Shown in pieces: positions 751 through 18,161 of a stretch of DNA of 64,000 nucleotides; the first letter of the stretch is position 1, and every line of letters begins with the position of its first letter. The position numbers were made by a program, and so were the translations under genes. Origin of the DNA: Bythopirellula sp. (lineage in GTDB: Bacteria; Planctomycetota; Planctomycetia; Pirellulales; Lacipirellulaceae); NCBI GenBank assembly GCA_965216565.1, contig OZ244170.1, forward strand, positions 4,064,001 to 4,128,000. The letters run 5' to 3'. The notes below the pieces were generated by a model that had not been told where the DNA came from, did no database searches, and saw only the letters and a list, made by a program, of their open reading frames with translations.

Positions 751-1623
751 TTAAACTGGTTGAGGGGCTTCCGCAAATCCCCAGCGCTGGGCGAGTGGTA
801 TTCCGATTAGTTCTTCAAGTTTCTCTACATCCGACCGAAAACGATCTCGAAGCAGTAGTTCTGCATGAGCTCGGATTGTCGCTCGCTCCGAATCTGCGAG
901 CTGGCGGTAAAGCAAATTGCGTATCAAGCGAGAACGCTTCACTCGTCCGCGAAATCGCTTCCAACCCAATTCGCGGCAGATTTGCGAAAGACTCTTTGTA
1001 GCACTGCAAAGTCGGTCGTATCGGGGCATGCTGGCGGGCATCACCTTGGTTTGCAACTTGGGCTCCAGGGGCATCGACGCAACACCAAGGAAATCCAATA
1101 CGCCCAGCGCGTGTTTCTGGGGATCCTGCTTCAGGTCATCGAATAATGAAATGTGTACTTGTGCGCGAGGAAAGCACTCCAAATAGTTGGCGACATACTC
1201 TGCGTAACAGCCCTCCTCGGCGATTTCAGGTGTGTCTTCAATGCGATCTTCCAACGGGCCATTCCATTTTCCATTTCGCACACCATCGAGATACATAGAG
1301 ACCGCTCGATCGATCGGATTACGCAGGCACATCATGAGTTTGATATTGGGATTCATTTCAGCAACGTAGTCACGTGCTACTTGGGAGTAGAGATACGAAT
1401 GCGAAATCTCTGCGATCACTTTCTCCGACCGGGCCTCCGCAAAATGATCTAAATACCATTGCCAACCTTGATGGAAATGGTGGTCGAAAAAATAGAGCCC
1501 TTTCGTCGGAATCATGTAGACGTCTGGATGTCGTGATAGAACGTCAAACAACCACGTCGAACCAGCTTTGCTGGTGCCGATGTAGATAAAATTCGGACCC
1601 TGATTTGATGTTGGCGTGCTCAT
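751..1623 (-). CDS. PAPS-dependent sulfotransferase (Sulfotransfer_1/3 family)
   Basis: 5'-PSB loop PNFIYIGTSKAGSTW and 3'-PB motif LRNPIDRAVSMY, the same motif layout as heparan-sulfate N/3-O-sulfotransferase-type domains. Confidence 0.9.
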   Translation of the reverse strand: MSTPTSNQGPNFIYIGTSKAGSTWLFDVLSRHPDVYMIPTKGLYFFDHHFHQGWQWYLDHFAEARSEKVIAEISHSYLYSQVARDYVAEMNPNIKLMMCLRNPIDRAVSMYLDGVRNGKWNGPLEDRIEDTPEIAEEGCYAEYVANYLECFPRAQVHISLFDDLKQDPQKHALGVLDFLGVASMPLEPKLQTKVMPASMPRYDRLCSATKSLSQICRELGWKRFRGRVKRSRLIRNLLYRQLADSERATIRAHAELLLRDRFRSDVEKLEELIGIPLAQRWGFAEAPQPV

Positions 1624-2787
1624 TTACTTCACACTGTGCGCGTTCATGTCGGTCAAGATGTCAGATAGGTAAGCCTGGAAACCTCTTTGCCAAAGGGTCT
1701 TGCGGACACCCTTGGCGATACGTCGGAAACCTCGCCCATCGCGATAGCGGTACACCGTCGCAGCCCAATGCTCCAGAAGTAGTTGGGCTTCGAACAGTCG
1801 AATGCACTTGTACGGAATGGGCTCGTTCAAGAAGTACCCTTCCAGCAGGTTCTCCTCATAACGGCGCAGTTGTTTGGCGTTGTACAGCAACCCGCCACTT
1901 AGTAGCTGTGGGCCGGAGGCTTTGACAGTCATCAGTAGTTTTGCCAGGTCTTCAAAAATGGGTGCTTCGAATCTTCCGGGCGTATCGAAAACGGTTACGC
2001 GGTTGTCGGCGTCGATAAACGCATTACGAGGGGCGTAATCCCCGTGCACTTGACCGGTAGGAATAGTGTCCGGCAGATGCTCCTGGGCATTTTCAATTAG
2101 ACGACGATGGATCTCGCTGATTCGAGTAGGACACCCTGCACGATCTTCCAAATAAGTAGAAAATCGTTCGATCGACTCCAGATAATCGTCACGCGAAGTG
2201 TTCCGCGTTTCGCAGTGCTCAAGCGGCGGTAGGTCGTGATGCTTTCTCAGCCAGCCTCCCATATGTCGGAAGGCAACTTCTAGCTTTTTAGAGAGCTGAA
2301 CATTTCTAAAGCGGTGCGAGTTATAAAGCAGTTGTCGCAAGCTAGGCTGATCGACCCACTCCATCACCATAGCCTGCTCGTCATGAAACAGATCGTAGAT
2401 GTGGACGGTACCAAATCGTGGGTCATTGTCTCCGAAGTGACCCTCAATACGTTTTAGAGCCGCGAATTCCTTGGCTGATTTCGTGGTTGGATCGGCCCGA
2501 CCAAAGAGCCGCGGGCGGTCGACGTACCCTTCGGTGCTCAGCTTTTGGGCATAGGCGATATCGCCCGGTCCCACGGGAACCTTCACGACCAGGCTGGGGC
2601 ATTTGGATTGGGACGAAAGTCGATAGATATACAGATTGCAAAAGCGACGATTGATTTCCTTAAGCAGTGTCAAGGTCCCTTCGCTATCTTCTAATCCCCG
2701 GTAGCCATGCAGTCGATCGCGCAACCTCTCTGTAATGCTGGTGGCGTCGATGGGAGCGTATTGCATGGTAGGTTGAGTCATAATCAT
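1624..2787 (-). CDS. APH/choline-kinase-like phosphotransferase
   Basis: LVVKV, MVMEWV, Brenner-type HGDYAPRN and VTVFD motifs; abuts the sulfotransferase (TAAATG) and overlaps wzx. Confidence 0.8.
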   Translation of the reverse strand: MIMTQPTMQYAPIDATSITERLRDRLHGYRGLEDSEGTLTLLKEINRRFCNLYIYRLSSQSKCPSLVVKVPVGPGDIAYAQKLSTEGYVDRPRLFGRADPTTKSAKEFAALKRIEGHFGDNDPRFGTVHIYDLFHDEQAMVMEWVDQPSLRQLLYNSHRFRNVQLSKKLEVAFRHMGGWLRKHHDLPPLEHCETRNTSRDDYLESIERFSTYLEDRAGCPTRISEIHRRLIENAQEHLPDTIPTGQVHGDYAPRNAFIDADNRVTVFDTPGRFEAPIFEDLAKLLMTVKASGPQLLSGGLLYNAKQLRRYEENLLEGYFLNEPIPYKCIRLFEAQLLLEHWAATVYRYRDGRGFRRIAKGVRKTLWQRGFQAYLSDILTDMNAHSVK

Positions 2788-4346
2788 ATCTGCTCCGCAC
2801 TGGCATTGGCTGAAAGGGCTGAATCGCCAAGACGAAATCGAGCGGGGAGCAGGCGATTGATCTCGGGGAAGAGTTCACGAATTTGTAGAGTCTTGAAATA
2901 GGCCAACCAAACGGCCCCGGTGGCAATCACTGCAAGTGTGAAGGAAACAATCCATGGTGGACTCAATAAGAATTGCAGTGCAAGTAACAAACAGCCAGTG
3001 ATGATGATCGTCAGGTGGATTCGGGCCACGATTCCCGGAATGCGAGCCAAGTGCCCGGCGCGAGTTAGCGCTTGGTGATAGGCGACGTTTTGCGCAATTA
3101 GCACGAGGGAGCTTACGGCAGCACCACCAAGTGGCCCGTAGAATGGTACAACTGCCAAATTGGCCAGCAACGCTACCAGACCGGCGCCCATGTCGATTTT
3201 CATGATCGTTTGCACGCGATCGAACACGCGTAGTGTGAGTGCATTGAATCCGAATGCCGCGTTCAAATAGATGCTAAAGGCGACGATCGAAAGCACCGGA
3301 CCTGAGCTGGCATATTCCTCGCCAAGGAGTAGCACAGTGGTCGGGGTCGCTAGAGAAAATGAAATCAGAAACAGGGGGAAAGTTAGTAACCCAATCCAAG
3401 CGGTGCTGCGCCAGTACAACTCGCTAATTTCATGTTTTTCGTCCCGCGCAAACATCCGCGCGGCCGTGGGGACGTAAAGCAGCCGGAAACTGTCGTAAAC
3501 TACCTTATTCAAATTTGCGATCGGCAAAATCGCTCGAAACGAAGCGACACCTACTGTGCCATGGAACAGTTCCAACAGCACAACCACCAGGCTTGTTCGC
3601 AGTCCAAACACGACGTCGGAGCTGAGCAGCGGAATCCCAAAGCCAAACCATTTCTTCGTGAATCGTTCGCTCTTAATTTTCTTTAGTTGTGTGAGAAGCT
3701 CTTCTTCGCGAAGTATTCGCCACAGCAACTGAGCCGAGATCAGTACTCCGACAAGTGTTGCCAGCACGTAGGCCCCTGCCAGGAAATAGGCGTCGCCACC
3801 ATATGCCATCAAGCTAATCACCGCGGCCAATCGTAAAAGTGGCGTGAGGATATACCTTCTCACGAATAGCGCCTTCACCCGACCGAAGATGGCCAACAGC
3901 TTCTCTAGCAGACTCTCTAGTGCTAGTAGCGGGGCCAGCGAGATAATGACCGCCAATACAGAAAGCGAAAGCGGATCGCTAACTACCGTAGCCGCTAGCG
4001 TGCCGTGTAGCGAAATTACCAATCCAATCAGCAACACGCCAGTCACGGCTATCGTGGAGAAGGCGACCAGCAAACTTCCCTTGACCCGATTGAGTTCGTG
4101 TTTCTCATGGTAAATGGGAACGAATCGGTTGGCTGCTTTGTCAGTCCCGAGCGCCGTCATCCGCGAAGCCAGTGCGGCAATACTGTAGCCGTAGGCAAAC
4201 GCGCCGTACCCCTCCTTGGCCAGGTACCGCACGATCAGCACCTGCACTATGAAGTTGATGGCGATCGAGATCATGCGACCGAGCAACATTAAGCTCGATC
4301 CGCGTACCTGCTTCTGGGCTTCACTCTGGGGACGTATTTCGCTCAT
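2784..4346 (-). CDS. wzx: Polysaccharide flippase (Wzx/MOP family)
   Basis: About 12-14 hydrophobic helices; IVRYLAKEGYGAF and VPFYGPLGGAA patterns; EPS context. Confidence 0.88.
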   Translation of the reverse strand: MSEIRPQSEAQKQVRGSSLMLLGRMISIAINFIVQVLIVRYLAKEGYGAFAYGYSIAALASRMTALGTDKAANRFVPIYHEKHELNRVKGSLLVAFSTIAVTGVLLIGLVISLHGTLAATVVSDPLSLSVLAVIISLAPLLALESLLEKLLAIFGRVKALFVRRYILTPLLRLAAVISLMAYGGDAYFLAGAYVLATLVGVLISAQLLWRILREEELLTQLKKIKSERFTKKWFGFGIPLLSSDVVFGLRTSLVVVLLELFHGTVGVASFRAILPIANLNKVVYDSFRLLYVPTAARMFARDEKHEISELYWRSTAWIGLLTFPLFLISFSLATPTTVLLLGEEYASSGPVLSIVAFSIYLNAAFGFNALTLRVFDRVQTIMKIDMGAGLVALLANLAVVPFYGPLGGAAVSSLVLIAQNVAYHQALTRAGHLARIPGIVARIHLTIIITGCLLLALQFLLSPPWIVSFTLAVIATGAVWLAYFKTLQIRELFPEINRLLPARFRLGDSALSANASAEQI

Positions 4347-5848
4347 GCGGTTACCCCCGAGGCTGCCTGTGCCTGCTTTGCTTCGCGTGTTGCAATCAGT
4401 GGCACACAGCTAGCCAAGGCAAATATCAGCCAGAAGAACCGAATAAACGAATAGTGCAAGAATATCCCGCACAGGAGATAGGCCAAAATCGCCATCGCAA
4501 ACATTGCCGCCAAATTGGCCAATTCAGGATCACTTTCCAAATGGGTGCGACGAACTTGGTGTAAACCGTGGAGCGTTACCCCGCACATGGCCAGAAATAG
4601 CCCTAACCCCAGCAGACCAATCTCAGAACTCAAGTGGAGGTACAAGCAATGCGCGGCACGATCTTCTTCTTGAGCCCGAAAACCGCCCACCTTGGCGTAC
4701 TTGCGATTGTAGAACGGGAAATTGCCAGGCCCGACTCCTAGCAGTGGATGCTCAGCGGTCACGCGGAGCGCGGCTAGCATTGAAGTAGCACGCCCTTTGA
4801 TGGCGCCATCCACATCTTCGGCATAGGCTGCCTTGTTGCCCGTGATTTGGCCGATGAGGGTTTGGATAGTATCCATGCGGGTCACGAGCTGAGGGAAAGC
4901 TGCAAGCATCAGCAACGACGCCGCACCTAACATCAATAAGTGCCTGCTGCGGATATAACCGGCGAAAACCATGACCATCGTAAGCATCACAAAGGCAACT
5001 GCAGCGCCACGAGAAAACGTCAATATGCAGCCAGCCGCAATTAAGAATGCTGCCGCGACATAGCCAAGTTTTGTCCAAGAAGTCTTGCGAAAGGCAGGTA
5101 GCACAGCCAGCGGCAACAGCATGAGCATGTTTTGTGCGTATCGATTCTGCTCGCCTAGGGGGCCCGCCGAACGACGCTGCTGCACATGCTGGTCCACGGT
5201 GAATCCTCTGCCCTCCATGGGCACCTGTGCAAAGCCGCCATAATTTCTAAGGTGTGTACCGGTTAGTTGCTGGATCGCAGACAAGCCACCCATGAAACTT
5301 CCAGCTACCAACAGTGCAATCACCACTTTCTGCAAACATGCACGCGTGCGGACGACGTTGCAAAGAATCAGAAACAATGCCAAACCTTCGATGACCTGTC
5401 CCTTTAGCATTTCAAGAGCCAGCCCCGGAAATCGAGCCGACATACTACTAATGACTTCCACCGCCAAGAGTCCTAATGCCCATGGCCAAGCGCGGGGGAA
5501 TACGAAAGACTCTTTTTTCGACACCAGCAAATATAGCCACACTAAAAGCAACGCCGCAGGCGGAGCAATCGCGGCTGCCACTTTGGGTACGCCGTGGAAA
5601 CGCATCGCTACAACCGGCACATTGGCAAACAGCATGAAAACGGTGAAGGCCGTGATCAAATCTGGATAACGCACCGCCAGGCAAACCATCGGAATCGCTG
5701 CGCACGCTACGAATACCAACCAGCCATTCGGAGAGGGCAATAGAAATAGCAAGCTTAGCGTCAGCGCAGCGGTTGCCAGCAGCGTGACCATTGGCCAGAC
5801 AACGCCATAACCAGTTTGATTCGTGGAAGTGGTTGAAGGTGTTAGCAA
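4343..5848 (-). CDS. wzy: O-antigen ligase / Wzy polymerase family membrane protein
   Basis: Multi-TM protein with TFSRGA, HPLLGVGPGNF and AHCLYL...EIGLLG (Wzy_C) motifs; ATGA overlap with wzx. Confidence 0.82.
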   Translation of the reverse strand: MLTPSTTSTNQTGYGVVWPMVTLLATAALTLSLLFLLPSPNGWLVFVACAAIPMVCLAVRYPDLITAFTVFMLFANVPVVAMRFHGVPKVAAAIAPPAALLLVWLYLLVSKKESFVFPRAWPWALGLLAVEVISSMSARFPGLALEMLKGQVIEGLALFLILCNVVRTRACLQKVVIALLVAGSFMGGLSAIQQLTGTHLRNYGGFAQVPMEGRGFTVDQHVQQRRSAGPLGEQNRYAQNMLMLLPLAVLPAFRKTSWTKLGYVAAAFLIAAGCILTFSRGAAVAFVMLTMVMVFAGYIRSRHLLMLGAASLLMLAAFPQLVTRMDTIQTLIGQITGNKAAYAEDVDGAIKGRATSMLAALRVTAEHPLLGVGPGNFPFYNRKYAKVGGFRAQEEDRAAHCLYLHLSSEIGLLGLGLFLAMCGVTLHGLHQVRRTHLESDPELANLAAMFAMAILAYLLCGIFLHYSFIRFFWLIFALASCVPLIATREAKQAQAASGVTA

Positions 5849-5877
5849 AATAGAACGGTCTCAATAGTTTTCAGTAG

Positions 5878-7080
5878 TTAGGCTTTCGAGCCAGCGATCT
5901 CAACAGCACGCTGAGGTTCCCACAGGTGAATGCGGCGTCCTCGCACCGTGTTGATAAAAGCAACCAAAGCTGCGGCATTCACTACACAAAAATAGGCAGG
6001 CAGAATCGCAATCTTCAGCGGACCTCGCAACACGGAACCTAGGGCAACGAAACTCAGTGAAAAGCCAACTACAGCAATCGAGTAAAAAAGGACCTGCAGA
6101 CCAAACAGTGCGGCATACACTGGGGAGTGTGTTGCCAGGATTGCGTTAACGACAAAGAGCAAAATCAGCGGGATCACCATCAATCGCCGCAAAACTTTAT
6201 GCGAAAACAGCTGAACGGAGTAGAATCCATGACGGAAGGGATTGAGGAGGTCCCGAACCATCATCACGCCCCGTAGGCCACGTGTCATCACACGAACCTT
6301 ACGCCCGAATTCGATTCCCTGCGATGCAGCCACCGGTTCGTAAGCAGCGGCCTGCTCTGCGAAAACCAATCGATGCCCCTGCTGAATCACCCGTACACTA
6401 GTGATAAAGTCGTCGGTGACTCCGTCCGGCACAGTGAGAAACAACCGCCGCCGGATCGCATAGATGGCTCCTGTTGCGGATATCACATCACCGGCTTGGC
6501 TTTCCCAACGCTTCAGCGCGCGATCCAAATTCCAATAAGCCCTTTCCCCGCCACCTTGATCGGCTTGGCCGGTGTGCTTCTGGTATCGCTGATCTCCCGC
6601 AACGCCGCCAACCTGATCGTCAGCGAATGGGGCAGCCAGCTGACGAATGGCATCGGTGGCGAACATGCTATTGGCATCGGAGAAGACTAAAATATCTCCC
6701 TTAGCACGATCCACTGCTGCGTTGAGAGCTTGCGCTTTGCCTTGTCGGGGTAAATCTAGTGCCATGATTCCTCGATTAGCATATTGGTTCATGATCGCAA
6801 CGGTTTGGTCCGTGGAACCATCAGACGCAACAATGATCTGCAGTTTGTCGGAGGGATAATCCAATTGCATCAAATTCTCGATCTTGTCACCAATGCTGGC
6901 CTCTTCGTTATGTGCGATCACAACAACTGAAACAGAAGGCGAATGCTCCTCTGCCTGCACCGGCTTGGGGAAGAGCCAGGCACGCACCGCAACCAGCAGC
7001 GGAAAGCCGAAGTAGGTGTATGCGACAACCACTACGCCGAACCAGAAAAGTATTTCGAATAAGAACATCTTTGGGATCAC
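5878..7080 (-). CDS. Glycosyltransferase family 2 (CESA-like_1 type)
   Basis: IAHNEE, DGSTD, GKAQALN, FSDAN, TDDF motifs; N- and C-terminal TM segments. Confidence 0.92.
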   Translation of the reverse strand: MIPKMFLFEILFWFGVVVVAYTYFGFPLLVAVRAWLFPKPVQAEEHSPSVSVVVIAHNEEASIGDKIENLMQLDYPSDKLQIIVASDGSTDQTVAIMNQYANRGIMALDLPRQGKAQALNAAVDRAKGDILVFSDANSMFATDAIRQLAAPFADDQVGGVAGDQRYQKHTGQADQGGGERAYWNLDRALKRWESQAGDVISATGAIYAIRRRLFLTVPDGVTDDFITSVRVIQQGHRLVFAEQAAAYEPVAASQGIEFGRKVRVMTRGLRGVMMVRDLLNPFRHGFYSVQLFSHKVLRRLMVIPLILLFVVNAILATHSPVYAALFGLQVLFYSIAVVGFSLSFVALGSVLRGPLKIAILPAYFCVVNAAALVAFINTVRGRRIHLWEPQRAVEIAGSKA

Positions 7081-8465
7081 TACCTAGAAACTGCCGTCGA
7101 ACCAAATAAACTCACAAGTTGTTCCGCATTCTGATGCAGGTCGAAATCCTCCATGATGCGCTCTCTAGCATGCTGGCCCATGCTTTGCCGAAGCTGAGGG
7201 TCTGCGGCAAGTTTGGCAAACGCATCTGCAAAACCCGCCACGTCTTTCGGCGATACCAGGAATCCAATCGCGTCGCTGTTTACGAGCTCTGGAATTCCCG
7301 AGAGTCGACTCGCTACGACCGGCAAGCCACATGCCATCCCTTCCATCAAGGCCACGGGAATTCCTTCCCGCCGCCCATCACTGGTTGGCACGCTGGGTGT
7401 AGCCAATACGTCGGAGTTCCGCAGCAGCTCCACAAGCTCATCGCGCGTTTTCGTCCCATGAAACGTCACGCGGGATTCTAGCGATAATCGCTGGGTAAGC
7501 TCTTGCAGCATCTCCAAATCTGATCCATCGCCTACGAAACTTACTTGAGCATCGATACCCTGCTGCGTGAGTTGATCGAGTGCTTCAATCAAATACCGCT
7601 GGCCTTTCACTTCGTGCAGCGTACCGACGCAGATAATATTCAGGCTGCGAATGGTTTCCTGCTGTCGTTCAGGCAGCGATCGAAATTTCTCCAGGTCCAC
7701 GCCACAGTGGATGATGTTGATCTTCTCCGCATACTTCTGACCGCAATGCTGCAGTATTTGGTCGCGATTGTAAGAGGAGATTGTCACCACAAATGCGGCG
7801 TGTGCGACTTTCTCGCGCAGCATATGTTTGAAACGATGCAGATCCGACCCATGGGCGGTAAAGCTAAAAGGAATATTCGTCAGGCGGTGAATCACATAAG
7901 CCGCCATGGCGGGGTGGTTTGCAAAATGGGCGTGAATATGTTCGACGTTGTCCCGCTTCATCTGGCGAGCGAAGGCAACGCATTTGGGATAGATCGTGAG
8001 ACCGCCAACAAGAAAATTTCGGTTTCCCAGGTTCCAACGAACAATTTGCCAAAGCGTGGAGAGGTAGCACAGCGGCTGCTGGAAGAACGTTTGCAAGTTG
8101 GCCAGAAGTATCTCGCCGTTCACAAAGGGCATGTATCGCGCTTTGGCTACGTAGCCTTCAGCTTCCGCGTGCATTACCTTCGGTTTGGGCGAAGCCGAGA
8201 GATAGTCCTTCAACTTCCGAAACAGCCCTGCCCCCGCGACTTCTTTTCCGCTGGCACTGCCTCCAAGCAATGGAAAGATCTCGACGTCGACCCCCTGACG
8301 CTCTACGGCAATCATTTCATACAGAACAAATGTCTCGGTGAGCTTAGGAAACCGCGACATCAGATAAGCAACTTTACAAATCTGTCGAGGAGCGTCCACG
8401 GCTGGAGAGTCGAAGCCGTGCTCAGTGGCCTCGGGGCATTCTATGGTCGAAGAAGGCTGGCTCAT
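7080..8465 (-). CDS. Glycosyltransferase family 4 (WcaL/AmsK-like)
   Basis: FPKLTETFV, HIHAHFA, TAHGSD, EGIPVALMEGMACGLPVV motifs. Confidence 0.92.
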   Translation of the reverse strand: MSQPSSTIECPEATEHGFDSPAVDAPRQICKVAYLMSRFPKLTETFVLYEMIAVERQGVDVEIFPLLGGSASGKEVAGAGLFRKLKDYLSASPKPKVMHAEAEGYVAKARYMPFVNGEILLANLQTFFQQPLCYLSTLWQIVRWNLGNRNFLVGGLTIYPKCVAFARQMKRDNVEHIHAHFANHPAMAAYVIHRLTNIPFSFTAHGSDLHRFKHMLREKVAHAAFVVTISSYNRDQILQHCGQKYAEKINIIHCGVDLEKFRSLPERQQETIRSLNIICVGTLHEVKGQRYLIEALDQLTQQGIDAQVSFVGDGSDLEMLQELTQRLSLESRVTFHGTKTRDELVELLRNSDVLATPSVPTSDGRREGIPVALMEGMACGLPVVASRLSGIPELVNSDAIGFLVSPKDVAGFADAFAKLAADPQLRQSMGQHARERIMEDFDLHQNAEQLVSLFGSTAVSR

Positions 8466-9382
8466 TGTGCAACTGTCGTGGCCTCCTGGCTAGCCTGTCT
8501 CGAGTCGAGAGTGGCAGCCATGTTGGGTTCAAGATGCAGGTCACCATTGCTCATGGCCACTGATGCTGCAGCGCGAATCGATTCAATCTCTGCCTCTTCC
8601 GATTCCGCCCGTTCGATTAAGCCAAATGCTGTGACTTCATCCTCGGGGAACATCGAAATACCAACTTTAAGATCAATACCCAAGTTGCGGCTAACGTCTT
8701 CCTGCATTTTGGCGGCAATTGCCAGAGCCTCCTCGCGGCTGAGCTCTGGTAGAAGAGCGAGGAAGTGTTCTTTGGTTTGGGTCAGGATGTCGCACGACCG
8801 GAGATGTTCCGACAAATACTCTGCAGCTTGTGCCGAAATATATTGCTGGATCAGCTTCTCGCGAAACTCTTGAGTGAAGCGGTCTAGGGCATTCTCTCCC
8901 TCGCCGGCTTCCGGATTGAGGGCCAGCATGGCAATTGGTCGGTGGAATAGCCGCGCTCGACGCACTTCTTGGACAACGGCCGATTGCGCTTCTTCGTAGG
9001 GAATTGTGCGAACCGTGGCATGGCTGACGATGGCAGTTGCGGCGGCGGAATGGAATTCATCAATTTTCTTCCCGAGCAGATAACTCAAAGCAATGGTCGT
9101 CCAAGTGGCCAAGATTTCGGTGACCATCAATGCAAAAGCATTCTCCTGCGGGCCGTACCCTGCCATGGCTCGAAGAGTCACCACACACACAACCGCCAGC
9201 GGAATATACCAATAGACCGAGATGCGGCGCAGCGAGGAAATTCCCAGTACCAACATACCCAGCACAGGCGCCAGGAGATAAACGAACGAGGCTAGGTTGA
9301 CCTGCTCATTAACACGTTCCACGTTGTAGAACGCGAAGAACCAGCCAAACAAAACCAAAATAGATAGATAAAGGCGTCCCAT
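8462..9382 (-). CDS. Membrane protein with degenerate GGDEF-like domain (RxxD I-site retained)
   Basis: Four N-terminal TM helices, then EVRRAR...RPIAML...LRSCDILTQTKEHFLALLPE...KVGISMFPED...LIERAE, the GGDEF-fold pattern without the GGDEF motif. Confidence 0.7.
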   Translation of the reverse strand: MGRLYLSILVLFGWFFAFYNVERVNEQVNLASFVYLLAPVLGMLVLGISSLRRISVYWYIPLAVVCVVTLRAMAGYGPQENAFALMVTEILATWTTIALSYLLGKKIDEFHSAAATAIVSHATVRTIPYEEAQSAVVQEVRRARLFHRPIAMLALNPEAGEGENALDRFTQEFREKLIQQYISAQAAEYLSEHLRSCDILTQTKEHFLALLPELSREEALAIAAKMQEDVSRNLGIDLKVGISMFPEDEVTAFGLIERAESEEAEIESIRAAASVAMSNGDLHLEPNMAATLDSRQASQEATTVAQ

Positions 9383-9464
9383 AATTGTTTGAACTTAGGT
9401 GTCCTCTTGAAGTGTCGTCTTGATATTTCTCTGCATAACTTTGTGAAATAGACTCTTGAGGTGG

Positions 9465-10115
9465 TCAGTAAGCACCCCGTTTAGAAACGATGGCGAACAC
9501 AGTTAACACCAAAATGCGAATGTCGTAGAAGAATGACTGGTTTTCCAAATACTCGATATCGAGCTGCGCGCGTTCTTCAAAATCGATATCACTTCGACCA
9601 CTGATCTGCCATAGACCGGTGATACCGGGCGTTACCTCTAATCGCTCTGTGTGTCGAAGCTCATAGGTTTCCGCTGCAAAGGACGTTGGTCGAGGGCCCA
9701 CGAGGCTCATGTTTCCGATTAAGACATTGATTAGTTGCGGCAACTCGTCCAAGCTCGTGCGACGTAAGAACGACCCCACGCGTGTAATCCGTGGATCGTT
9801 GGAAATCTTGAAGTCAGGCAGCGTGAGCTCATTCAGGTGGGCCAGTTCCTTCTTCAGTTCTTCAGCATTCGTGACCATGGTGCGGAACTTGAACATCTTG
9901 AACCGACGCCCCCCGATGCCGGTGCGATTCTGAAAGAAAAAGATTGGGCGACCATCTTCAATCCAGATAGCGGCCATGCAGCACAACATCAGTGGCAGAA
10001 ACACAGGTAGCGCACAGAGGACGACGAAGATGTCGAGAAAGCGCTTCGAACGACTAACTCGTCGTTGAATGCCAGGTGACTTGCGTAACAGGACTTGTTG
10101 CACGACAACACTCAA
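9465..10115 (-). CDS. Priming sugar transferase (polyprenol-phosphate phosphoglycosyltransferase, Bac_transf)
   Basis: KRFLD, FKFRTM, DPRITRVG, LDELPQL, SLVGPRP, PGITGLWQ motifs. Confidence 0.95.
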   Translation of the reverse strand: MSVVVQQVLLRKSPGIQRRVSRSKRFLDIFVVLCALPVFLPLMLCCMAAIWIEDGRPIFFFQNRTGIGGRRFKMFKFRTMVTNAEELKKELAHLNELTLPDFKISNDPRITRVGSFLRRTSLDELPQLINVLIGNMSLVGPRPTSFAAETYELRHTERLEVTPGITGLWQISGRSDIDFEERAQLDIEYLENQSFFYDIRILVLTVFAIVSKRGAY

Positions 10116-10133
10116 TGTCTGGAGGTGGGGAGA

Positions 10134-11567
10134 TTAACGAGAGCGGTTGGCCAGAGGGATGAAGGCCAGCATCGAGCTGCCAAGCATTCCCATCAACAAA
10201 CTGCCACCAATCACGATCTTCTTGTTGGGCCAGGCAGGCTTGATGTTAGGCGTCGGCGGCTGCAATACGGTTACGCGAAGATCAGCTCCCCCTTCATTAG
10301 CAACATCCTTCGTCAGTCGCATTTCTGTCAGCTGGACGACGATCGAGCTGTGCAGCACTTCAAGTTGTTCAATCTGTTTTTGAAGATGCAGTTGTTCTAA
10401 ACGTTGGCGGTCGACGATCTTGGCATTGGCGAGTTCTTCTTCGTACAGCTTGCGGAGTCGGTCCTCCTGCATTTGCACAGCGCGTAGTTCTCGATCGAGC
10501 ACTCGCGGGGCTCGGTCAACGAGCGTTTGCAACCGTTGTTTCCAATCGGCAATCTGCTTATTGACCGCTCGCAATTCGGGATGCTTGGCATGGTATTTTT
10601 CAACGAGTTCTTGACGCCGGACTTCGGCTTGAAATAACTCTTGTTGCAAGGCAACAGGTTCTTGCATGCTCCGCATGTCAATCTCATTGAGCATTTGCAA
10701 GGCAGCCCAACCTTGCTCGGAACTGGCGTCATTCGATTCCAACTTCGCCACTGCCTGATCCCCCGAGGGAGCATAGTTGGCAGTCACCACTTGGGCTTCA
10801 GATCTGGAAGAAGCAGAGGCCGGCAAGACAAGTGCTTCGTTCGTGCGAGACATTTCAATATCTAACGTGGCAATGCGATTCTCGAGTCCGATGCGTCGGC
10901 CGCGTACCTCTGTGTAGGCCGTCGCCAAATCTTGCAGCTGTGACTGTTGAAGTGCCCACCCTGCATCGGTACTACCCAGGACGGAACCCGTTTCGACCAA
11001 CTCGCGGAACTCGAGCCGCAATGCTTCCAGTTCACCACGAATGCCTTCTTCAGTTTGCGCTAGCGAATTAAGGGCATCGATCTGACCGCCTTGATCGAGC
11101 TTCAAGAGAAACTCTTGATAGTGCTCGATCAAATGCTCGGTAATTAGCTCACCCTGCACGCGATCGTCCCAGCGGAGAGATACGTTGAGTATCCGTGTGC
11201 CTACGATCGGTTTGACGGTTAGTTCTTCAGAAAGAATTAAGTGTAATTCTTCCGAGGTGAGCGGGCTCGTGGCAGGCCCATTCTGAAAGCTCGAGATAGC
11301 CTGGCTAACAATGTGCCAACTCGACAAGACTTCCGCTTGCGTGGCTGTTAGTTCGGCATCGCGTTGCAATGCCTCTTTCTTCTCCAGGCGTAGCAATCGA
11401 CTACCAGGCTCAAGCAGTAAATTGGCTTGGATTTCGTAGAGTGGCGTTGCTGTTTTGTAATACGCTATTCCTAGGGCCAAACAAGCCAAAAGAATGGCAG
11501 CAATCCAAAACTTTCGTCTCCACAAGCGGAGCAGAAGTTCAATAGGTGTAATATTAAAGTCGTCCAA
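10134..11567 (-). CDS. Polysaccharide co-polymerase / chain-length determinant (Wzz/GumC-like, no kinase domain)
   Basis: N-terminal TM, long coiled coil, KYHAKHPE, and proline-rich PPTPNIKPAWP before a C-terminal TM. TTG start. Confidence 0.85.
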   Translation of the reverse strand: MDDFNITPIELLLRLWRRKFWIAAILLACLALGIAYYKTATPLYEIQANLLLEPGSRLLRLEKKEALQRDAELTATQAEVLSSWHIVSQAISSFQNGPATSPLTSEELHLILSEELTVKPIVGTRILNVSLRWDDRVQGELITEHLIEHYQEFLLKLDQGGQIDALNSLAQTEEGIRGELEALRLEFRELVETGSVLGSTDAGWALQQSQLQDLATAYTEVRGRRIGLENRIATLDIEMSRTNEALVLPASASSRSEAQVVTANYAPSGDQAVAKLESNDASSEQGWAALQMLNEIDMRSMQEPVALQQELFQAEVRRQELVEKYHAKHPELRAVNKQIADWKQRLQTLVDRAPRVLDRELRAVQMQEDRLRKLYEEELANAKIVDRQRLEQLHLQKQIEQLEVLHSSIVVQLTEMRLTKDVANEGGADLRVTVLQPPTPNIKPAWPNKKIVIGGSLLMGMLGSSMLAFIPLANRSR

Positions 11568-11860
11568 AACTACGTGTCCTCAGCGCAAGAGTGGCCATTG
11601 ATTGACAATCAGCGAAGTCAGAATTCTCCCCATGCCAGAGCAGTGCAGTGCTGCTAGTCGGCGGCCGGTTGTAGAGATGGCCTCGAAGCTATGCTTCGCA
11701 TGATATTCGCTTGGCTTCACATGATCTTCACACCCCAGATTATCCCAGCCCAACTGTTTGTCAAACTAATTGCCAATCGGCAACGCGTCGTCTTTTATGT
11801 GTGTCATCAAGGACGGGAGATCGTCGCCGGCCGAGAGTGTGATCGGAAGGCACTGATGTT

Positions 11861-11920
11861 CAGATAACTGTAGCGATTTTCAATTAACTGTAGCGGATGT
11901 CACTTAAGTGTAGCGGTCAG
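11861..11920. repeat. Three 20-bp-period direct repeats, consensus CA-N2-TAA(C/G)TGTAGCG
   Basis: cagataactgtagcgatttt / caattaactgtagcggatgt / cacttaagtgtagcggtcag in the divergent intergenic region. Confidence 0.85.
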
Positions 11921-11935
11921 GGCAATTGCCCTGAC
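11916..11935. promoter_or_regulatory. Perfect 20-bp palindrome, candidate operator or hairpin
   Basis: GTCAGGGCAATTGCCCTGAC equals its own reverse complement and directly follows the phased repeats. Its function is inferred. Confidence 0.55.
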
Positions 11936-12232
11936 TCCTGATGCTGATATTAAAAGTAAAAAAAGCGCAGCGATTCTTTCAACGGGCCACGACAACGCCG
12001 CTTATTGGACAGTGACGTCGCAATCAATTGGCTAAGACTGCCGCTTTGTCATTTCGCAGAAGCGTATGCGGAGCAAACACTCTCAGCGACGTACTTGGCC
12101 TTGGATATGTGCGAAGTAGTTTTGCAAAGTTCTGAACATTGCTCACAGTCGCAATTACAATGGAAGGGCGCTTAATGCAAGCTACAAGTGCTCTCAATCT
12201 TTACTCGCACTGCCTGTCCGAAGGCTATTACG

Positions 12233-13264
12233 ATGCCAAGTTGGTTTAGTCCCTATTCCGTATATGCCAGAATGCCGCGCGACTATTGGCATGTTCGCGA
12301 ACCGACCGGTAAGCACATCGAGGTCAACTCGCTAGGCGGATATCCCATCGATATGCGCGGCAAGGCAGAGCCCTACTCGGGTGAGTCGAAAGACGGCTTT
12401 CCTCTGCGTGATCAGAATCGGGAAGGCCTACAACTGCTGCCAGTGACCGTCACGCAAATGGCCCTGGGTCACTACGATTGTTGGCTTGAAGATCAATCGG
12501 AGGAACGTGTCGATACGATTCGGCGTTGTGCCGAATGGCTTTGTGAACATCATGGTTCTTGCCCGGCGAAGCTAGACGGTTGGTCGTACCATTTCGATCA
12601 TGGACGGCTGGGGATTCGAGCACCGTTCATCTCTGCCATGGGCCAAGGCCAGGGCATTTCCTTGTTGGTCCGTGCGCACAAGATAATTGGTGACGACCGT
12701 TATTTAGAGACGTGTCACCAAGCGATGAAGCCTTTCTATGAAGGCTTAGCGGATGGCGGTGTGACAGCGTATTTGCCTGACAATGGAATCTATTTCGAGG
12801 AATATCCTTGCCAACCGTACAGTCATATTCTTAATGGGCACATGTTCGCCCTATGGGGTGTCCACGACTACGGCATCTATTTGGATGACGATAAAGCCCT
12901 GCAGCTGGCCCAAGCGGGTGCGGATACTCTCGCTAAGCTCCTGCCGCGTTACGACATTGGTTATTGGTCTCGCTATGGGCTGTTCCCTCATCCCACTCCG
13001 AACGTCGCTAGCCCCTTCTATCACGAGCTACACATCGCTCAGCTGCGCGCGATGCATCTCATGTATCGGCATCAAGTGTATGCCGACTTCGCCGACCGTT
13101 GGGAACGGCAATTCACAAGTTGGATCAATTTCACTCGGGCTGTATATGCCAAGGTGCGTATCAAGAAGTGGGTTAAGGCAACCAAGCAACAACTGGCAGC
13201 CCAAGGTATCGAGGTAGATGCTGCCACTGACATTTGGACAGGAAGTAAACAGATAGGCACGTGA
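12233..13264 (+). CDS. D-glucuronyl C5-epimerase family protein
   Basis: ISAMGQGQGIS, YFEEYP, HILNGHMFALWG, WSRY, ASPFYHELHIAQL match the C5-epim_C signature. Start is ATG 12233 or GTG 12188. Confidence 0.88.
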   Translation: MPSWFSPYSVYARMPRDYWHVREPTGKHIEVNSLGGYPIDMRGKAEPYSGESKDGFPLRDQNREGLQLLPVTVTQMALGHYDCWLEDQSEERVDTIRRCAEWLCEHHGSCPAKLDGWSYHFDHGRLGIRAPFISAMGQGQGISLLVRAHKIIGDDRYLETCHQAMKPFYEGLADGGVTAYLPDNGIYFEEYPCQPYSHILNGHMFALWGVHDYGIYLDDDKALQLAQAGADTLAKLLPRYDIGYWSRYGLFPHPTPNVASPFYHELHIAQLRAMHLMYRHQVYADFADRWERQFTSWINFTRAVYAKVRIKKWVKATKQQLAAQGIEVDAATDIWTGSKQIGT

Positions 13265-13337
13265 AGAATGCTAAAGAGATAGGTCCCAATAGCTGGCAAC
13301 GACGATAACACTTCTTTGACTAACCAGATCGCTCTTT

Positions 13338-14378
13338 ATGAAACGTATATTACTAACAGGTGCTGCTGGCTTCATCGGTTTCCATGTTGCCAAAGAGTTT
13401 CTGGCCCGCGGCGATGCCGTTGTGGGTGTGGATAATCTCAACGAATACTATGAAGTTGAACTGAAGCACGCGCGACTACGAGTCTTGGACGAGTATCCTA
13501 ACTTCGATTTCTATCGACTCGACCTCGCCGAACGGGAACATACCCAGGAACTCATCGAGAGCCAATCCTGGGACGCAATCGTTCATTTGGCAGCACAGGT
13601 GGGGGTGCGTTACTCGGTAGAAAACCCAATGGCGTATGTCGATAGCAACTTGTTGGGTTTCATGCATGTGCTGGACGGTGCTCACAAGGCAGGGGTTGAT
13701 CATTTCGTCTACGCATCATCAAGTTCGGTTTACGGGGCCAATCGCAAGATGCCGTTTTCGGTGAACGACAATGTCGATCACCCGATCAGCCTTTACGCAG
13801 CAACAAAGCGCGCCAACGAATTGTTGGCCCATTCGTATAGCGACATTGCTGGGTTACCAACTACCGGTCTGCGATTCTTTACGGTCTATGGTCCCTGGGG
13901 ACGACCTGATATGGCTGTCTTCAAGTTTGCGCGCCTGATCATGGCTGGCGAGCCGATCCCCGTGTTTAATCGTGGCAAGATGAAACGCGACTTCACGTTC
14001 GTCGACGATGTAGCCAATTCGATTGTCCGGCTAACCGATCGGCCACCCAGCAAGAATCCCATGTGGATGCCAGATTCCCAGGATCCCAGCCAGAGCCGCG
14101 CACCGTTCCGGACCTACAACATTGGTAATCATACGCCGGTGGAACTAGACCATCTGATCCATGTCTTGGAAGAGGCACTCGGTGTTAAGGCGAAACGCGA
14201 ACTACTTCCTATGCAGCCAGGCGACGTCCACATGACCTACGCGGATGTGACAACGCTAATCGAGGACGTCGACTTCCAGCCTTCCACCAGTATCGAAGAT
14301 GGCATCGCCCAGTTTGTCGAGTGGTACCGCAGCTATCATGGTGCCCAAGAAGAAAGCGCCATCTACACCGATACGTAG
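13338..14378 (+). CDS. NAD-dependent epimerase, probable UDP-glucuronate 4-epimerase
   Basis: TGAAGFIG, YASSSSVYG, YAATKRANE, LRFFTVYGPWGRPDMA, PMQPGDV motifs. Confidence 0.92.
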   Translation: MKRILLTGAAGFIGFHVAKEFLARGDAVVGVDNLNEYYEVELKHARLRVLDEYPNFDFYRLDLAEREHTQELIESQSWDAIVHLAAQVGVRYSVENPMAYVDSNLLGFMHVLDGAHKAGVDHFVYASSSSVYGANRKMPFSVNDNVDHPISLYAATKRANELLAHSYSDIAGLPTTGLRFFTVYGPWGRPDMAVFKFARLIMAGEPIPVFNRGKMKRDFTFVDDVANSIVRLTDRPPSKNPMWMPDSQDPSQSRAPFRTYNIGNHTPVELDHLIHVLEEALGVKAKRELLPMQPGDVHMTYADVTTLIEDVDFQPSTSIEDGIAQFVEWYRSYHGAQEESAIYTDT

Positions 14379-14490
14379 GCCTATTGCAACGTTAGGGGTC
14401 GGAGTTTCTGGGCTTACGCAATCGGATGGTAGGTGCGATGCGAGTCGGTCCTAAATTAGGACTAGTCGTCTGCGGTGATAGCTGGGTTCC

Positions 14491-16050
14491 TCAAGAAGTG
14501 AAAGACTTCCTAATCTTCTTGGCTTGTTTACTGATCTTCATAACTTCGTCCGAGTCTTTCCTTTCCAGATTCTTCAATTGCAGCCCCATGCGATTATTGC
14601 TTTGCAACGTTTTGTTATGTCGATCCAAAAAGTCCCAGTAGAGAGTTGTGAAGGGGCAAGCATCATCGCCTGTGGCTTCGGCGGGATTGAATCGGCAGCC
14701 GGTGCAGTAGTTGCTCATTCGCTGAATGTACTTTCCCGAAGCCACGTAAGGCTTGCTGGCCATCACACCGCCATCAGCGAATTGAGACATACCTAGCGTG
14801 TTTGGCAACTCGACCCACTCGACGGCATCGACATAAACTGCCAAATACCACTCGTGTATCGCTTTCGGATCGACGCCTAGCATCAAAGCGAATAGGCCAG
14901 TGACCATCAACCGTTGAATATGATGGGCATAACCATAGTCGAGAGTCTGCCCGATCGCTTGGCTTAAGCAATTCATTTCAGTGTCGCCGGTCCAATAGAA
15001 ATCCGGCAAAGGCTGGTTCGCTTTTAATGCGTTTCGCTGCAGGTAGTCGGGCATATAGAGCCAGTAGATGCCCCTGACGTATTCCCTCCATCCCAGAATC
15101 TGTCGGACAAAGCCTTCAACACTGTTGAGAGGTGCCTTGCCAGCTCGAAAAGCTACAACGGCTTCGTCAATCACTTCACGCGGACTGATCAACTTGAGAT
15201 TCATCGCAGCCGAGAGTCGCGAATGATACAGGTAAGGCTCATTGGTCCACATCGCATCCTGGTAGTTTCCGAAGTTGGCAAGTCGATGTTCAATGAAATC
15301 ATCGAGAGCTTGTCGAGCCTGCTTGGGCGTCACTGCCCAATCAAAGTGATCGAGACTGCCGGGGTGTTGTGCAAACTTTTCGTGGACCAGATCGAGGACT
15401 TCCTTAGTCGTCCCATCAGGGCTAAATCCCTTGGAGTCAGGTACAGCTTCGGGCCCTTGTTTTCCGAAAGAGCCCCGATTCTGTGGATCATAATTCCACT
15501 TGCCTCCCTCCGGATCTCCTCCATCCATCAGAATGTCGTGTTTCCGTCGAAGTTCTCGATAGAAATATTCCAGTCGTAGTTGCTTACGACCCGCGGCATG
15601 TTCGGCAAAGTCATCGATCGTACTCATGAAATGACGGTCAATGCGAATCTCTAGTTCAACATCAAGCCTTTGAGCACTGTCCAATAGCATTTCGCGAACA
15701 CGCCACTCCCCAGGTTCGACAACAATGAGCTTCTGGGGATTGAATTGTTGGATAGCCGACTCCAGCTCGGCGTCTAAACTCCCCTTATTTTCTGCGTCGT
15801 CTAGCTGGCGATAGGAGATGCGAAATTTTTTCCGGGCCAAGCTCTTGCGGAAATGTCGCATACTCGCAAGGAATATGGCAATGCGTGCTTTGTGCGTCCA
15901 GACGTGTGTCGACTCTTCAGCGACTTCAGCCATCCAGACGACATCTTGCTCGCGATCGAAATCATCGAACGCGCTAGAGTCTATGTCGAGCTGATCGCCG
16001 AGTACGATCACCAGATGCCGACAATTTTGAGTTGACTCTTTGTCACTCAC
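14491..16050 (-). CDS. phrB: FeS-BCP cryptochrome/(6-4) photolyase (PhrB/CryB type)
   Basis: LGDQL, GWREYVR, HHIQRLMV, DAVEWVELPN, KPY and the C-terminal Cys set MSNYCTGC...ACPF. Confidence 0.92.
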   Translation of the reverse strand: MSDKESTQNCRHLVIVLGDQLDIDSSAFDDFDREQDVVWMAEVAEESTHVWTHKARIAIFLASMRHFRKSLARKKFRISYRQLDDAENKGSLDAELESAIQQFNPQKLIVVEPGEWRVREMLLDSAQRLDVELEIRIDRHFMSTIDDFAEHAAGRKQLRLEYFYRELRRKHDILMDGGDPEGGKWNYDPQNRGSFGKQGPEAVPDSKGFSPDGTTKEVLDLVHEKFAQHPGSLDHFDWAVTPKQARQALDDFIEHRLANFGNYQDAMWTNEPYLYHSRLSAAMNLKLISPREVIDEAVVAFRAGKAPLNSVEGFVRQILGWREYVRGIYWLYMPDYLQRNALKANQPLPDFYWTGDTEMNCLSQAIGQTLDYGYAHHIQRLMVTGLFALMLGVDPKAIHEWYLAVYVDAVEWVELPNTLGMSQFADGGVMASKPYVASGKYIQRMSNYCTGCRFNPAEATGDDACPFTTLYWDFLDRHNKTLQSNNRMGLQLKNLERKDSDEVMKISKQAKKIRKSFTS

Positions 16051-16086
16051 AGGATTTTGGCCCTTTCAGGTTGCAGGTGGCTTCAT

Positions 16087-16491
16087 CTACGAGGCTTGTA
16101 GCCATCGACCGACGTAGTAACCGACGCAACTGATTGTCGCGGTGAAAAAAGTTCCCCAAGCAAGATCGATCAGGGTAATCATCCAGGGCCAATTCTTGAT
16201 TGTTGCATGATTCGTCAAATCGTAGGTAGCGTAGGTGACTAGGCCTAGGAAACCTCCAAGTGCCAGAGCCTTCCACGGAGACCCCGTGGACAAAGCAGGA
16301 GCAATGGCAAACACTACGACCCCCGCTGTAAATATTAGATAGAACGCGACTGCTGCATACCAATTTGGCTGTTCTGCTAATAAATGGCCAAGGTGATTCT
16401 TGTAGAGATTGCGTGCCACGAGCCCTAGCCAGATCGAATCGATTGCCAAGCCAGCGATGATGGTTGCTAGGTAGATTTTAAAGTACACCAT
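16087..16491 (-). CDS. DUF2177 family small membrane protein
   Basis: IDSIWLG, FYLIF, YATYDLTN, DLAWG motifs; four TM segments; ATG at 16491 chosen. Confidence 0.85.
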   Translation of the reverse strand: MVYFKIYLATIIAGLAIDSIWLGLVARNLYKNHLGHLLAEQPNWYAAVAFYLIFTAGVVVFAIAPALSTGSPWKALALGGFLGLVTYATYDLTNHATIKNWPWMITLIDLAWGTFFTATISCVGYYVGRWLQAS

Positions 16492-16802
16492 GCAAATCTT
16501 TCTAAGTGAGAATAACAAACAGACCGGATTAATTTATCTGGTTCGGTGTTATTGAGTACTCTAGGCCAGCAAAGCACTTCGACCACCTGGCCGTGGGAAT
16601 ATTATCAAAGATACTACGATCGTGATGGCATTCCTGATGTTAAGGCTTAGCTGGTTGGAAAGTATGGTGTTACAGGTTCTTTAAGTCGCCTCGCCACTTG
16701 TCATTAAGGGTATCAGGCCTAAAAAATAGAAGTATGGAATGGGCCATTTAGTCCCAGTACTCCTTGATACTACCCGGCTCAATATGGCCAGCGAGGTTGA
16801 CG

Positions 16803-18155: not shown

Positions 18156-18161
18156 GACGCA

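Follow-up and report, generated by a model that had tools for sequence, protein, structure and literature searches.

The single-contig genome (5.21 Mb) of a Bythopirellula sp. of the Planctomycetota (assembly GCA_965216565.1) carries a surface-polysaccharide locus of 17 genes and 23.7 kb (C1:4054642-4078378) in which homologues of two animal heparan-modifying enzymes, a glucuronyl C5-epimerase of the GLCE family and a sulfotransferase dependent on 3'-phosphoadenosine 5'-phosphosulfate (PAPS), accompany a Wzx/Wzy assembly system. The window, that is the whole stretch of DNA under study, comprises 64,000 nucleotides of contig OZ244170.1 (G000:C1:4064001-4128000); about 9.4 kb of the locus lies beyond its left edge and was taken from the left-flank DNA. 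Judged from its predicted proteins, the locus combines every component needed for Wzx/Wzy assembly and export with a modification cassette. With slightly better than even confidence, its product is read as a Wzx/Wzy surface polysaccharide that is likely sulfated and likely contains a C5-epimerised hexuronic acid, both modifications being predicted to take place on the cytoplasmic lipid-linked repeat unit. The epimerised uronate is most probably D-glucuronic acid (GlcA) turned into L-iduronic acid (IdoA).

The epimerase homologue, a protein of 343 amino acids (aa), is encoded on the plus strand at window positions 12233-13264, in a reading frame open from a GTG at 12188, and is the product of the only PF06662 gene in the genome. 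Its score against the Pfam C5-epim_C profile (PF06662) is 152.5 bits (E 1.2e-44), compared with a cut-off of 23.3, which bears out the divergent C5-epimerase homologue named in a preliminary description of the window. Its sole significant solved relatives by sequence in the Protein Data Bank (PDB) are human and zebrafish GLCE (E 3e-22 to 1e-21). The key catalytic residues of GLCE are given as E499, Y500, N510, Y560 and Y578 in human numbering in the portion of PMC13308652 available, and in the alignment to 6hzz and 6i01 these fall on E190, Y191, N201, Y248 and Y263 of the planctomycete protein. The 6i01 chain fixes the alignment register, having phenylalanine where 6hzz has tyrosine exactly at the last of the catalytic positions. 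E190, Y191, Y248 and Y263 are invariant among 18 homologues of 35-77% identity, and N201 is conserved in at least 90%. The AlphaFold2 (AF2) model (pLDDT 92.1, pTM 0.91) predicts an alpha-helical toroid catalytic domain, and the top eight Foldseek matches to it are human and zebrafish GLCE (E 1e-11, 214-217 columns, root-mean-square deviation 2.1-3.1 A). These are followed, seven orders of magnitude weaker, by cellobiose 2-epimerases, GH76, GH88, GH105 and polysaccharide lyases of the same toroid fold.

The sulfotransferase (290 aa, minus strand, 751-1623; Pfam Sulfotransfer_1, 56.8 bits) is of the heparan sulfate (HS) 3-OST/NST kind. Its PDB matches are the bacterial protein 3rnl (E 2e-18), HS 3-OST-1 (E 4e-17) and the N-sulfotransferase (NST) domain of NDST1 (E 1e-10), with HS 3-OST-3 and -5 also among its nearest solved relatives. 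Residues K19, E72, R101 and S109 are matched in 3-OST-1, and all four are invariant in five orthologues; we take K19 to be the lysine of the 5'-phosphosulfate-binding (5'-PSB) loop, E72 the catalytic glutamate base, and R101 and S109 the arginine and serine of the 3'-phosphate-binding (3'-PB) site. The acceptor, and N- as opposed to O-sulfation, are indistinguishable from the sulfotransferase sequence. The search for cysDNC elsewhere in the genome, proposed in the preliminary description, found CysN and CysC joined in one bifunctional protein (970 bits against a cut-off of 715) and a second, free-standing CysC (280 bits against 163), and PAPS can therefore be made. A TuaD-like nucleotide-sugar dehydrogenase gene is located 61 kb upstream; it scores 496 bits against the TuaD model, below the cut-off of 700, and passes the generic nucleotide-sugar-dehydrogenase model with 461 bits (cut-off 190). 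The genes for PAPS and uridine diphosphate (UDP)-GlcA supply all lie outside the locus.

Sulfated exopolysaccharide (EPS) had been described as uncommon in bacteria, a statement at odds with the genomic potential of this family. Nine PF00685 matches occur in the genome, and of the 100 family genomes sampled, 66 have homologues of this sulfotransferase, none above 33% identity and often with several next to one another. In several same-family genomes, three to six heparan-type sulfotransferase homologues per run are spread over about 6-35 kb (G041:C1:5807856-5839859, G027:C2:5395180-5430900, G030:C2:97704-123438 and G058:C52:6493-12867). Such runs suggest that heavily sulfated glycans may be widespread in Pirellulaceae.

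The connection between the two modifying enzymes is provided by gene linkage. A 14-gene operon, from the co-polymerase gene to the Big_9 gene, is present in the same order in three Pirellulaceae genomes (G107, G108 and G109), with 41-76% aa identity, the HprK-like protein being the weakest. The position of the epimerase gene varies. In the Bythopirellula genome it is transcribed away from the co-polymerase gene and has a short-chain dehydrogenase/reductase (SDR) gene downstream; in L010 and L009 (from G107 and G108) it lies downstream of the Wza gene and convergent to the Big_9 gene; and in L011 (G109) it follows a Wza-like gene on a separate contig from the operon. In two metagenome contigs, L118 and L119, a gene for an epimerase about 62% identical is found within the operon directly after the CE4 gene, in the order Wzy-Wzx-APH-sulfotransferase-APH-HprK-like-P-loop-ATP-grasp-CE4-epimerase; L119 ends just upstream of the expected sulfotransferase position. 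The APH-like kinase gene occurs in all related loci and is duplicated around the sulfotransferase gene in the metagenome loci (L118 2611-3564 and 4542-5618; L119 276-1352). The epimerase thus accompanies the sulfotransferase cassette across three arrangements of the genes and six loci, counting the G109 copy on its own contig, and this linkage sustains the earlier view of a functional tie between the sulfotransferase and the C5-epimerase homologue. The nearest epimerase homologues are named from isolates of Roseimaritima and Novipirellula/Rhodopirellula, and by these names the genome falls within or close to the Pirellulaceae.

Outside this clade the association was not seen. At least 587 species genomes contain PF06662 homologues, but the family is rare in this phylum, with matches in 2 of 100 other family genomes (one above the cut-off), none of 16 genus genomes and 3 of 300 phylum genomes; the locus itself was not found in the 16 same-genus genomes. 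Of the loci with an epimerase homologue, only 2 among 80 from genomes and 1 among 58 from metagenomes have a match to a profile of Pirellulaceae HS-type sulfotransferases in their flanks, and these three of 138 all belong to the close clade. The distant homologues are mostly Acidobacteriota proteins of about 323 aa, adjoining GT4 genes in 69 of 80 cases. Three distant loci were scanned against Pfam: L012 and L069 have the homologue in a Wzx/Wzy cluster without a sulfotransferase, and the scanned part of L054 contains glycosyltransferase, methyltransferase and acetyltransferase genes and neither Wzx nor Wzy. The gene surveys indicate that sulfation potential is ordinary in the family and that this locus is sporadic. 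In L012, from a Desulfobacteraceae metagenome-assembled genome, a homologue of the GT2 glycosyltransferase of the locus (11055-12203, 36% identity over 376 aa) lies 1.5 kb from the PF06662 gene with Wzy between them, and the pairing of GT2 and epimerase may be older than the sulfation cassette. Fused PF06662 forms, unlike the 343-aa protein, are encoded in giant open frames of two other planctomycete genomes, one of 1583 aa with two copies and one of 1367 aa (G267:C173:5490-7277 and G153:C58:49749-50159; L115-L117).

The ten minus-strand open reading frames (ORFs) of the window overlap or are separated by gaps of at most 82 nt, which fits one operon. In the direction of transcription they encode a Wzz-type polysaccharide co-polymerase without a kinase domain (10134-11567, 477 aa; Pfam Wzz 42.1 bits, transmembrane segments at 18-36 and 451-469), a small polyprenyl-phosphate glycosyl-1-phosphate (priming) transferase (9465-10115, 216 aa; Bac_transf 223 bits, and TIGR03025 275 bits, slightly below its cut-off), a 306-aa membrane protein (8462-9382), a GT4 enzyme (7080-8465, 461 aa; Glycos_transf_1 127 bits, and 219 bits to an EpsE-like NCBIfam model, below its cut-off), a membrane-anchored GT2 enzyme (5878-7080, 400 aa; Glycos_transf_2 84 bits, four hydrophobic segments), a Wzy-type polymerase of the Wzy_C/O-antigen ligase family (4343-5848, 501 aa; Wzy_C 67.5 bits, 12 hydrophobic segments), a Wzx-type flippase (2784-4346, 520 aa; Polysacc_synt 71.7 bits, 10 hydrophobic segments), a phosphotransferase resembling APH and protein kinases (1624-2787, 387 aa; APH 41.8 bits), the sulfotransferase and an ORF cut by the window edge. 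The latter (3-776) is the 5' part, 258 codons, of a gene for a 374-aa P-loop kinase-like protein of the HprK/PEPCK superfamily, the remainder of which lies left of the window (L002:9652-10776). After this HprK-like kinase the operon continues with a dTMP-kinase-like P-loop protein (233 aa), an ATP-grasp ligase (440 aa), a CE4 polysaccharide deacetylase (340 aa; Polysacc_deac_1 64.1 bits), a Big_9/cadherin-like protein (1330 aa) and a Wza-like exporter (534 aa; Poly_export and SLBB domains, lipobox-like N-terminus), ending at G000:C1:4054642. The epimerase and SDR genes diverge from the operon across a spacer of 620-665 bp.

A priming transferase, flippase, polymerase, co-polymerase and outer-membrane polysaccharide exporter (OPX) are thus all encoded in one locus, as in Wzx/Wzy-dependent capsule and EPS systems. 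The wzx, wzy, co-polymerase, priming transferase, GT2, GT4 and sulfotransferase genes had been assigned to a single operon in the preliminary description; each was recovered in its place with a Pfam score above the gathering cut-off, and two genes that its interval had passed over, those of the APH-like kinase and the 306-aa membrane protein, have been added here. The GC content of the locus (52.5%) gives no island signal against the genome (53.6 +/- 1.5%). A promoter and terminator scan of 11400-14700 returned four promoter-like sites and one terminator-like site, no more than expected from shuffled sequence. Of 16 runs considered for window positions 9400-14400, none was of RNA.

The CE4 deacetylase has PgaB/IcaB-type proteins as its nearest relatives, and its TFDD and HTQTH motifs, invariant in four orthologues, are presumably the catalytic Asp-Asp and the His-x-x-x-His metal/base motifs. 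The HprK-like protein has no Pfam match and a weak match to FomB kinase; its GGGKT P-loop is conserved in five orthologues, an AF2 model (pLDDT 79) finds PEPCK and HprK/P as the best Foldseek matches (E 7e-6 to 2e-4), and an Atlas entry gives it the name 'HPr kinase C-terminal domain'. The PDB matches of the P-loop protein are weak ones to thymidylate kinases (E 4e-5). It was also considered as a dedicated adenosine 5'-phosphosulfate (APS) kinase, a candidate rejected because BLASTP against the CysC of the genome covers the P-loop alone (E 0.14). No PDB sequence matched the APH-like kinase at E<=0.01, and the PDB matches of the ATP-grasp protein, to carbamoyl-phosphate synthetase and biotin carboxylase only, give no substrate clue. 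A search of the ESM Atlas with the N-terminal residues 25-700 of the Big_9 protein gave no usable match.

The glycosyltransferases do not point to a heparosan backbone. The nearest solved relative of the GT2 enzyme is 6yv7 (E 1e-21), which is not a glycosaminoglycan (GAG) synthase; cellulose synthases match at about 33 bits, and heparosan synthase B reaches only 22.9 bits, along a stretch of about 98 residues in the generic GT-A core. In the GT2 comparison no polymerase for a chain in which GlcA alternates with N-acetylglucosamine (GlcNAc), of the KfiA/KfiC, PmHS or EXT type, was recognised at the locus. A genome search for GT64 (EXT-type) enzymes returned no match and is uninformative, the control having matched in 0 of 14 genomes. 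The term 'GAG-like' had been used for the product; in the sense of a heparosan-type backbone it does not hold, as the locus has instead one priming transferase, one GT4, one GT2 and Wzx/Wzy, and assembly is therefore expected to proceed block-wise from repeat units. As far as the genes tell, 'GAG-like' applies to the tool kit only.

In the Wzx/Wzy pathway, the undecaprenyl-diphosphate-linked repeat unit is the sole glycan accessible in the cytoplasm. A hydropathy scan detected no hydrophobic N-terminal or transmembrane segment in the epimerase, the sulfotransferase, the CE4 and ATP-grasp proteins or the three kinase-like proteins, and so gave no sign of modification of a finished polymer outside the cytoplasm. 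The absence of an export segment from all seven modification enzymes and their need for PAPS or ATP argue that they act on the lipid-linked repeat before flipping, in line with the cytoplasmic or lipid-linked substrate proposed earlier for the epimerase. The priming transferase, GT4 and membrane GT2 would build a short repeat on undecaprenyl phosphate, and with one priming enzyme and two glycosyltransferases this repeat probably has about three sugars. The CE4 enzyme would strip an N-acetyl (or O-acetyl) group, the heparan-type sulfotransferase would transfer sulfate from PAPS, and the GLCE-like enzyme would invert C5 of a uronate already flanked by sugars. The APH-, HprK- and dTMP-kinase-like proteins and the ATP-grasp enzyme may introduce further ATP-dependent decorations (phosphate, amide or acyl groups). 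Wzx would then flip the unit, Wzy with the co-polymerase would polymerise it, and the Wza-like lipoprotein would export the chain, with the Big_9 protein as a possible surface partner.

The SDR gene next to the epimerase gene bears on the identity of the uronate. It begins 73 nt downstream on the same strand (13338-14378) and encodes a 346-aa extended-SDR protein (Pfam Epimerase, 184 bits) with the motifs GAAGFIG (GxxGxxG) and YAATK (YxxxK), a predicted nucleotide-sugar 4-epimerase. Among solved structures it is closest to 5u4q (446 bits), an entry whose deposited name is dTDP-glucose dehydratase, and then to the 6zl6 set (140 bits), which we take to be Bacillus cereus UDP-GlcA 4-epimerase; no curated NCBIfam model reaches its cut-off. 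The earlier assignment as UDP-GlcA 4-epimerase stands as far as an extended SDR is present and this activity is probable. Membership of the conserved locus was not borne out: orthologues of 54-57% identity lie on other contigs in G107-G109, and only in this genome is the gene adjacent to the locus.

Several points count against a sulfated, IdoA-containing repeat made in this way. The beta-hairpin and beta-sandwich domains at the N-terminus of animal GLCE are absent from the 343-aa protein; the significant sequence alignment covers query residues 139-307 and chain residues 343-517, and the structural one about 215 columns, the whole chain having about 512 residues. Human GLCE requires long chains, and without the beta domains substrate recognition by the planctomycete enzyme must therefore differ. 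The only bacterial homologue assayed, according to the sections available of PMC4432689 and PMC13308652, is the 448-aa protein of Bermanella, and it was tested on desulfated heparin or heparan sulfate, which are non-native substrates. The gene for uronate supply is not in the locus, and no glycosyltransferase specific for UDP-GlcA is recognisable. Were the SDR a UDP-GlcA 4-epimerase, it would provide galacturonic acid (GalA), and the epimerised sugar could then be GalA and not GlcA. The hydropathy scan is a crude, untrained substitute for signal-peptide prediction. The sulfotransferase profile was derived from one family and could miss other sulfotransferases near distant epimerase homologues, and the four genomes and two contigs that carry the linkage are relatives and not independent lineages.

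One alternative is true heparan-style maturation, in which a split NDST, made up of the CE4 deacetylase and the sulfotransferase, would convert GlcNAc to N-sulfoglucosamine (GlcNS), and the epimerase would then convert the neighbouring GlcA to IdoA to give a GlcNS-IdoA motif. Homologues of all three heparan maturation activities are found in one conserved cassette, the CE4 gene adjoins the epimerase gene in L118 and L119, the sulfotransferase resembles the NDST1 sulfotransferase domain as well as the 3-OSTs, and the available text of PMC7356697 reports N-sulfated 'GAG-like' exopolymers measured in Pontiella, a bacterium of the Planctomycetes-Verrucomicrobia-Chlamydiae (PVC) group. However, a heparosan-type polymerase is not present, the deacetylase domain of NDST is of a kind unrelated to CE4, the sulfotransferase sequence does not separate the two kinds of sulfation, and the freed amine might just as well be re-acylated by the ATP-grasp ligase; a heparan-like product proper is judged possible but unlikely. 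An epimerase substrate other than GlcA, with GalA converted to L-altruronate or mannuronic to guluronic acid and a polymer free of IdoA, would suit the adjacent SDR, which is closest to UDP-glucuronate 4-epimerase-type enzymes, and in the sources available no short bacterial PF06662 protein has a directly shown substrate. This reading seems improbable to us, given that the SDR is unlinked in the three related genomes, that all five GLCE catalytic residues are kept and that the single product-correlated precedent in those sources, Escherichia coli O112ab, has IdoA.

The cassette might also decorate a protein glycan, for example on the 1330-aa Big_9 protein, or another glycoconjugate and not a free exopolysaccharide. 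The Big_9 gene is conserved within the cassette in all carriers with enough flanking DNA, and the Wzy_C family includes O-glycosylation ligases, the best NCBIfam match of the Wzy protein being an exosortase-associated O-glycosylation ligase (87 bits, below the cut-off). HprK-like kinases, too, are usually protein or peptide kinases. The sulfated IdoA glycans of archaea are protein-linked, according to the portion of PMC12624080 available. Against this, the conserved co-polymerase and Wza-type outer-membrane exporter are a capsule/EPS export signature and the proteins closest to the sulfotransferase are enzymes of carbohydrates, and we regard protein decoration as decidedly unlikely. Least probable is that only sulfation is real and the PF06662 protein is a lyase, a hydrolase, an (alpha/alpha)-toroid binding protein or inactive: the lower-ranked Foldseek matches include enzymes of these kinds and cellobiose 2-epimerases, but all five catalytic residues are conserved and the gap in Foldseek E-value separates GLCE from that next fold class. 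The preferred reading remains an acidic Wzx/Wzy surface polysaccharide, sulfated and C5-epimerised on its lipid-linked repeat.

Parts of this arrangement have counterparts in known systems. The O-antigen clusters of E. coli O112ab and Shigella boydii 15 also encode, within a Wzx/Wzy cluster, a short PF06662 protein (323 aa, 'Gae') without the animal N-terminal domains, and their O antigen contains L-IdoA (PMC3068255, PMC7685785). The available parts of their descriptions, on which this likeness is based, mention no sulfotransferase, deacetylase, kinases or ATP-grasp protein, and the product is an O antigen, not exported by Wza. Bermanella marisrubri RED65_08024 is, in the text available, the only bacterial PF06662 protein with shown in vitro GlcA-to-IdoA activity (PMC4432689, PMC13308652); at 448 aa and from a gammaproteobacterium, it differs from the protein described here. 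Animal heparan maturation (NDST, GLCE and 3-OST/2-OST/6-OST) shares with the locus a GLCE homologue with identical catalytic residues, a 3-OST/NST-like sulfotransferase and a deacetylase. In animals these enzymes work in the Golgi lumen, on a GlcA-GlcNAc polymer that is already complete, whereas the enzymes here are apparently cytoplasmic and belong to a block-wise Wzx/Wzy system; the deacetylase is of the CE4 and not the NDST type, and the epimerase, unlike animal GLCE, has no beta-hairpin or beta-sandwich domain.

On the sulfation side, in the Wzx/Wzy-type wps-1 cluster of Actinoplanes missouriensis a protein-kinase-like gene accompanies that of a heparan-type sulfotransferase, much as the APH-like gene does here (PMC13390465), and the synechan (xss) cluster of Synechocystis is Wzx/Wzy-dependent and includes sulfotransferases (PMC8205485). 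Both are from other phyla, the portions of these papers available mention no C5-epimerase (the word 'epimerase' has no occurrence in that of PMC13390465), and sulfation in Actinoplanes is putative. A measured, mostly N-sulfated exopolymer is reported for Pontiella (Kiritimatiellae, PVC group), with a candidate cluster containing a GAG-type sulfotransferase, GT2 and GT4; its gene set is different and the accessible text has no occurrence of 'epimerase' (PMC7356697). By analogy, the closest known working counterpart of the proposed mechanism appears to be the Agl system of Halobacterium salinarum, in which, as far as the sources at hand describe it, Agl30/Agl31 and Agl32 carry out sulfation and GlcA-to-IdoA conversion on a lipid-linked glycan before its transfer (PMC12624080, PMC13308652). 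That glycan, unlike the product expected here, is a dolichol-linked tetrasaccharide that becomes N-linked to protein. Agl32 was rejected as a GLCE homologue, as the same sources, in the parts available, state that a BLAST search with GLCE does not retrieve it and that it is without the GLCE catalytic residues.

Other features of the region concern regulation and the borders of the locus. In the divergent intergenic region (11568-12232), three 9-mer copies, two exact and one with one mismatch, start at 11867, 11887 and 11907 (11867-11915) with an exact spacing of 20 bp. A pattern search found no exact copies elsewhere in the window, and the 9-mers were not found upstream of the co-polymerase gene in the relatives; the triplet is possibly a regulator binding array. 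The 306-aa membrane protein, conserved in G107-G109, has two hydrophobic segments and no Pfam match at E<=0.001; a possible GGDEF-like C-terminal domain (E 0.024, below the cut-off) has a signature motif that looks degenerate. By analogy with other EPS systems, it could be a receptor for cyclic di-GMP governing polymer output. On the right (14491-20143) the locus is bordered by ordinary genes, encoding a photolyase-related DPRP protein and a trio of amine oxidase, DUF1365 protein and cyclopropane-fatty-acid synthase. Beyond the Wza gene on the left (3-9762 of L001, G000:C1:4044001-4064000) are genes for a second Big_9/cadherin protein of 1049 aa and for an outer-membrane efflux protein, together with three HlyD-type genes, one of which encodes a fusion to a peptidase M50 domain; the efflux and HlyD genes may encode a secretion system for the giant Big_9 proteins.

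Sulfated polysaccharides and PF06662 homologues in O-antigen clusters were, separately, already known or suspected in bacteria, and a review states, in the part available, that sulfation has not been observed among prokaryotic GAG-like polymers (PMC4432689). A literature search found no publication on this locus or on a sulfated, C5-epimerised bacterial polysaccharide. What appears to be new is that homologues for sulfation and C5-epimerisation are tied by conserved linkage, in species with isolated close relatives. If the predicted activities are real, bacteria would offer chemo-enzymatic heparin work two proteins of interest, a C5-epimerase that is small, soluble and single-domain and a heparan-type sulfotransferase that is likewise soluble; the animal enzymes express poorly according to the sources available. 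If the split-NDST route to GlcNS-IdoA were true, both hallmark modifications of heparan would for the first time have a genetically defined source in bacteria, in species with cultured representatives, and the product would be a Wzy-polymerised GlcNS-IdoA polyanion to which the three kinases and the ATP-grasp enzyme would add extra phosphate or amide groups. Should the chemistry prove negative, the locus would be one more variable EPS cluster. It is in any case a real, conserved and unusually rich variant of the Wzx/Wzy polysaccharide systems, and a sulfated, epimerised product, if true, would help to explain the 'sulfated GAG-like' material of PVC bacteria and anammox granules described in the available part of PMC7356697.

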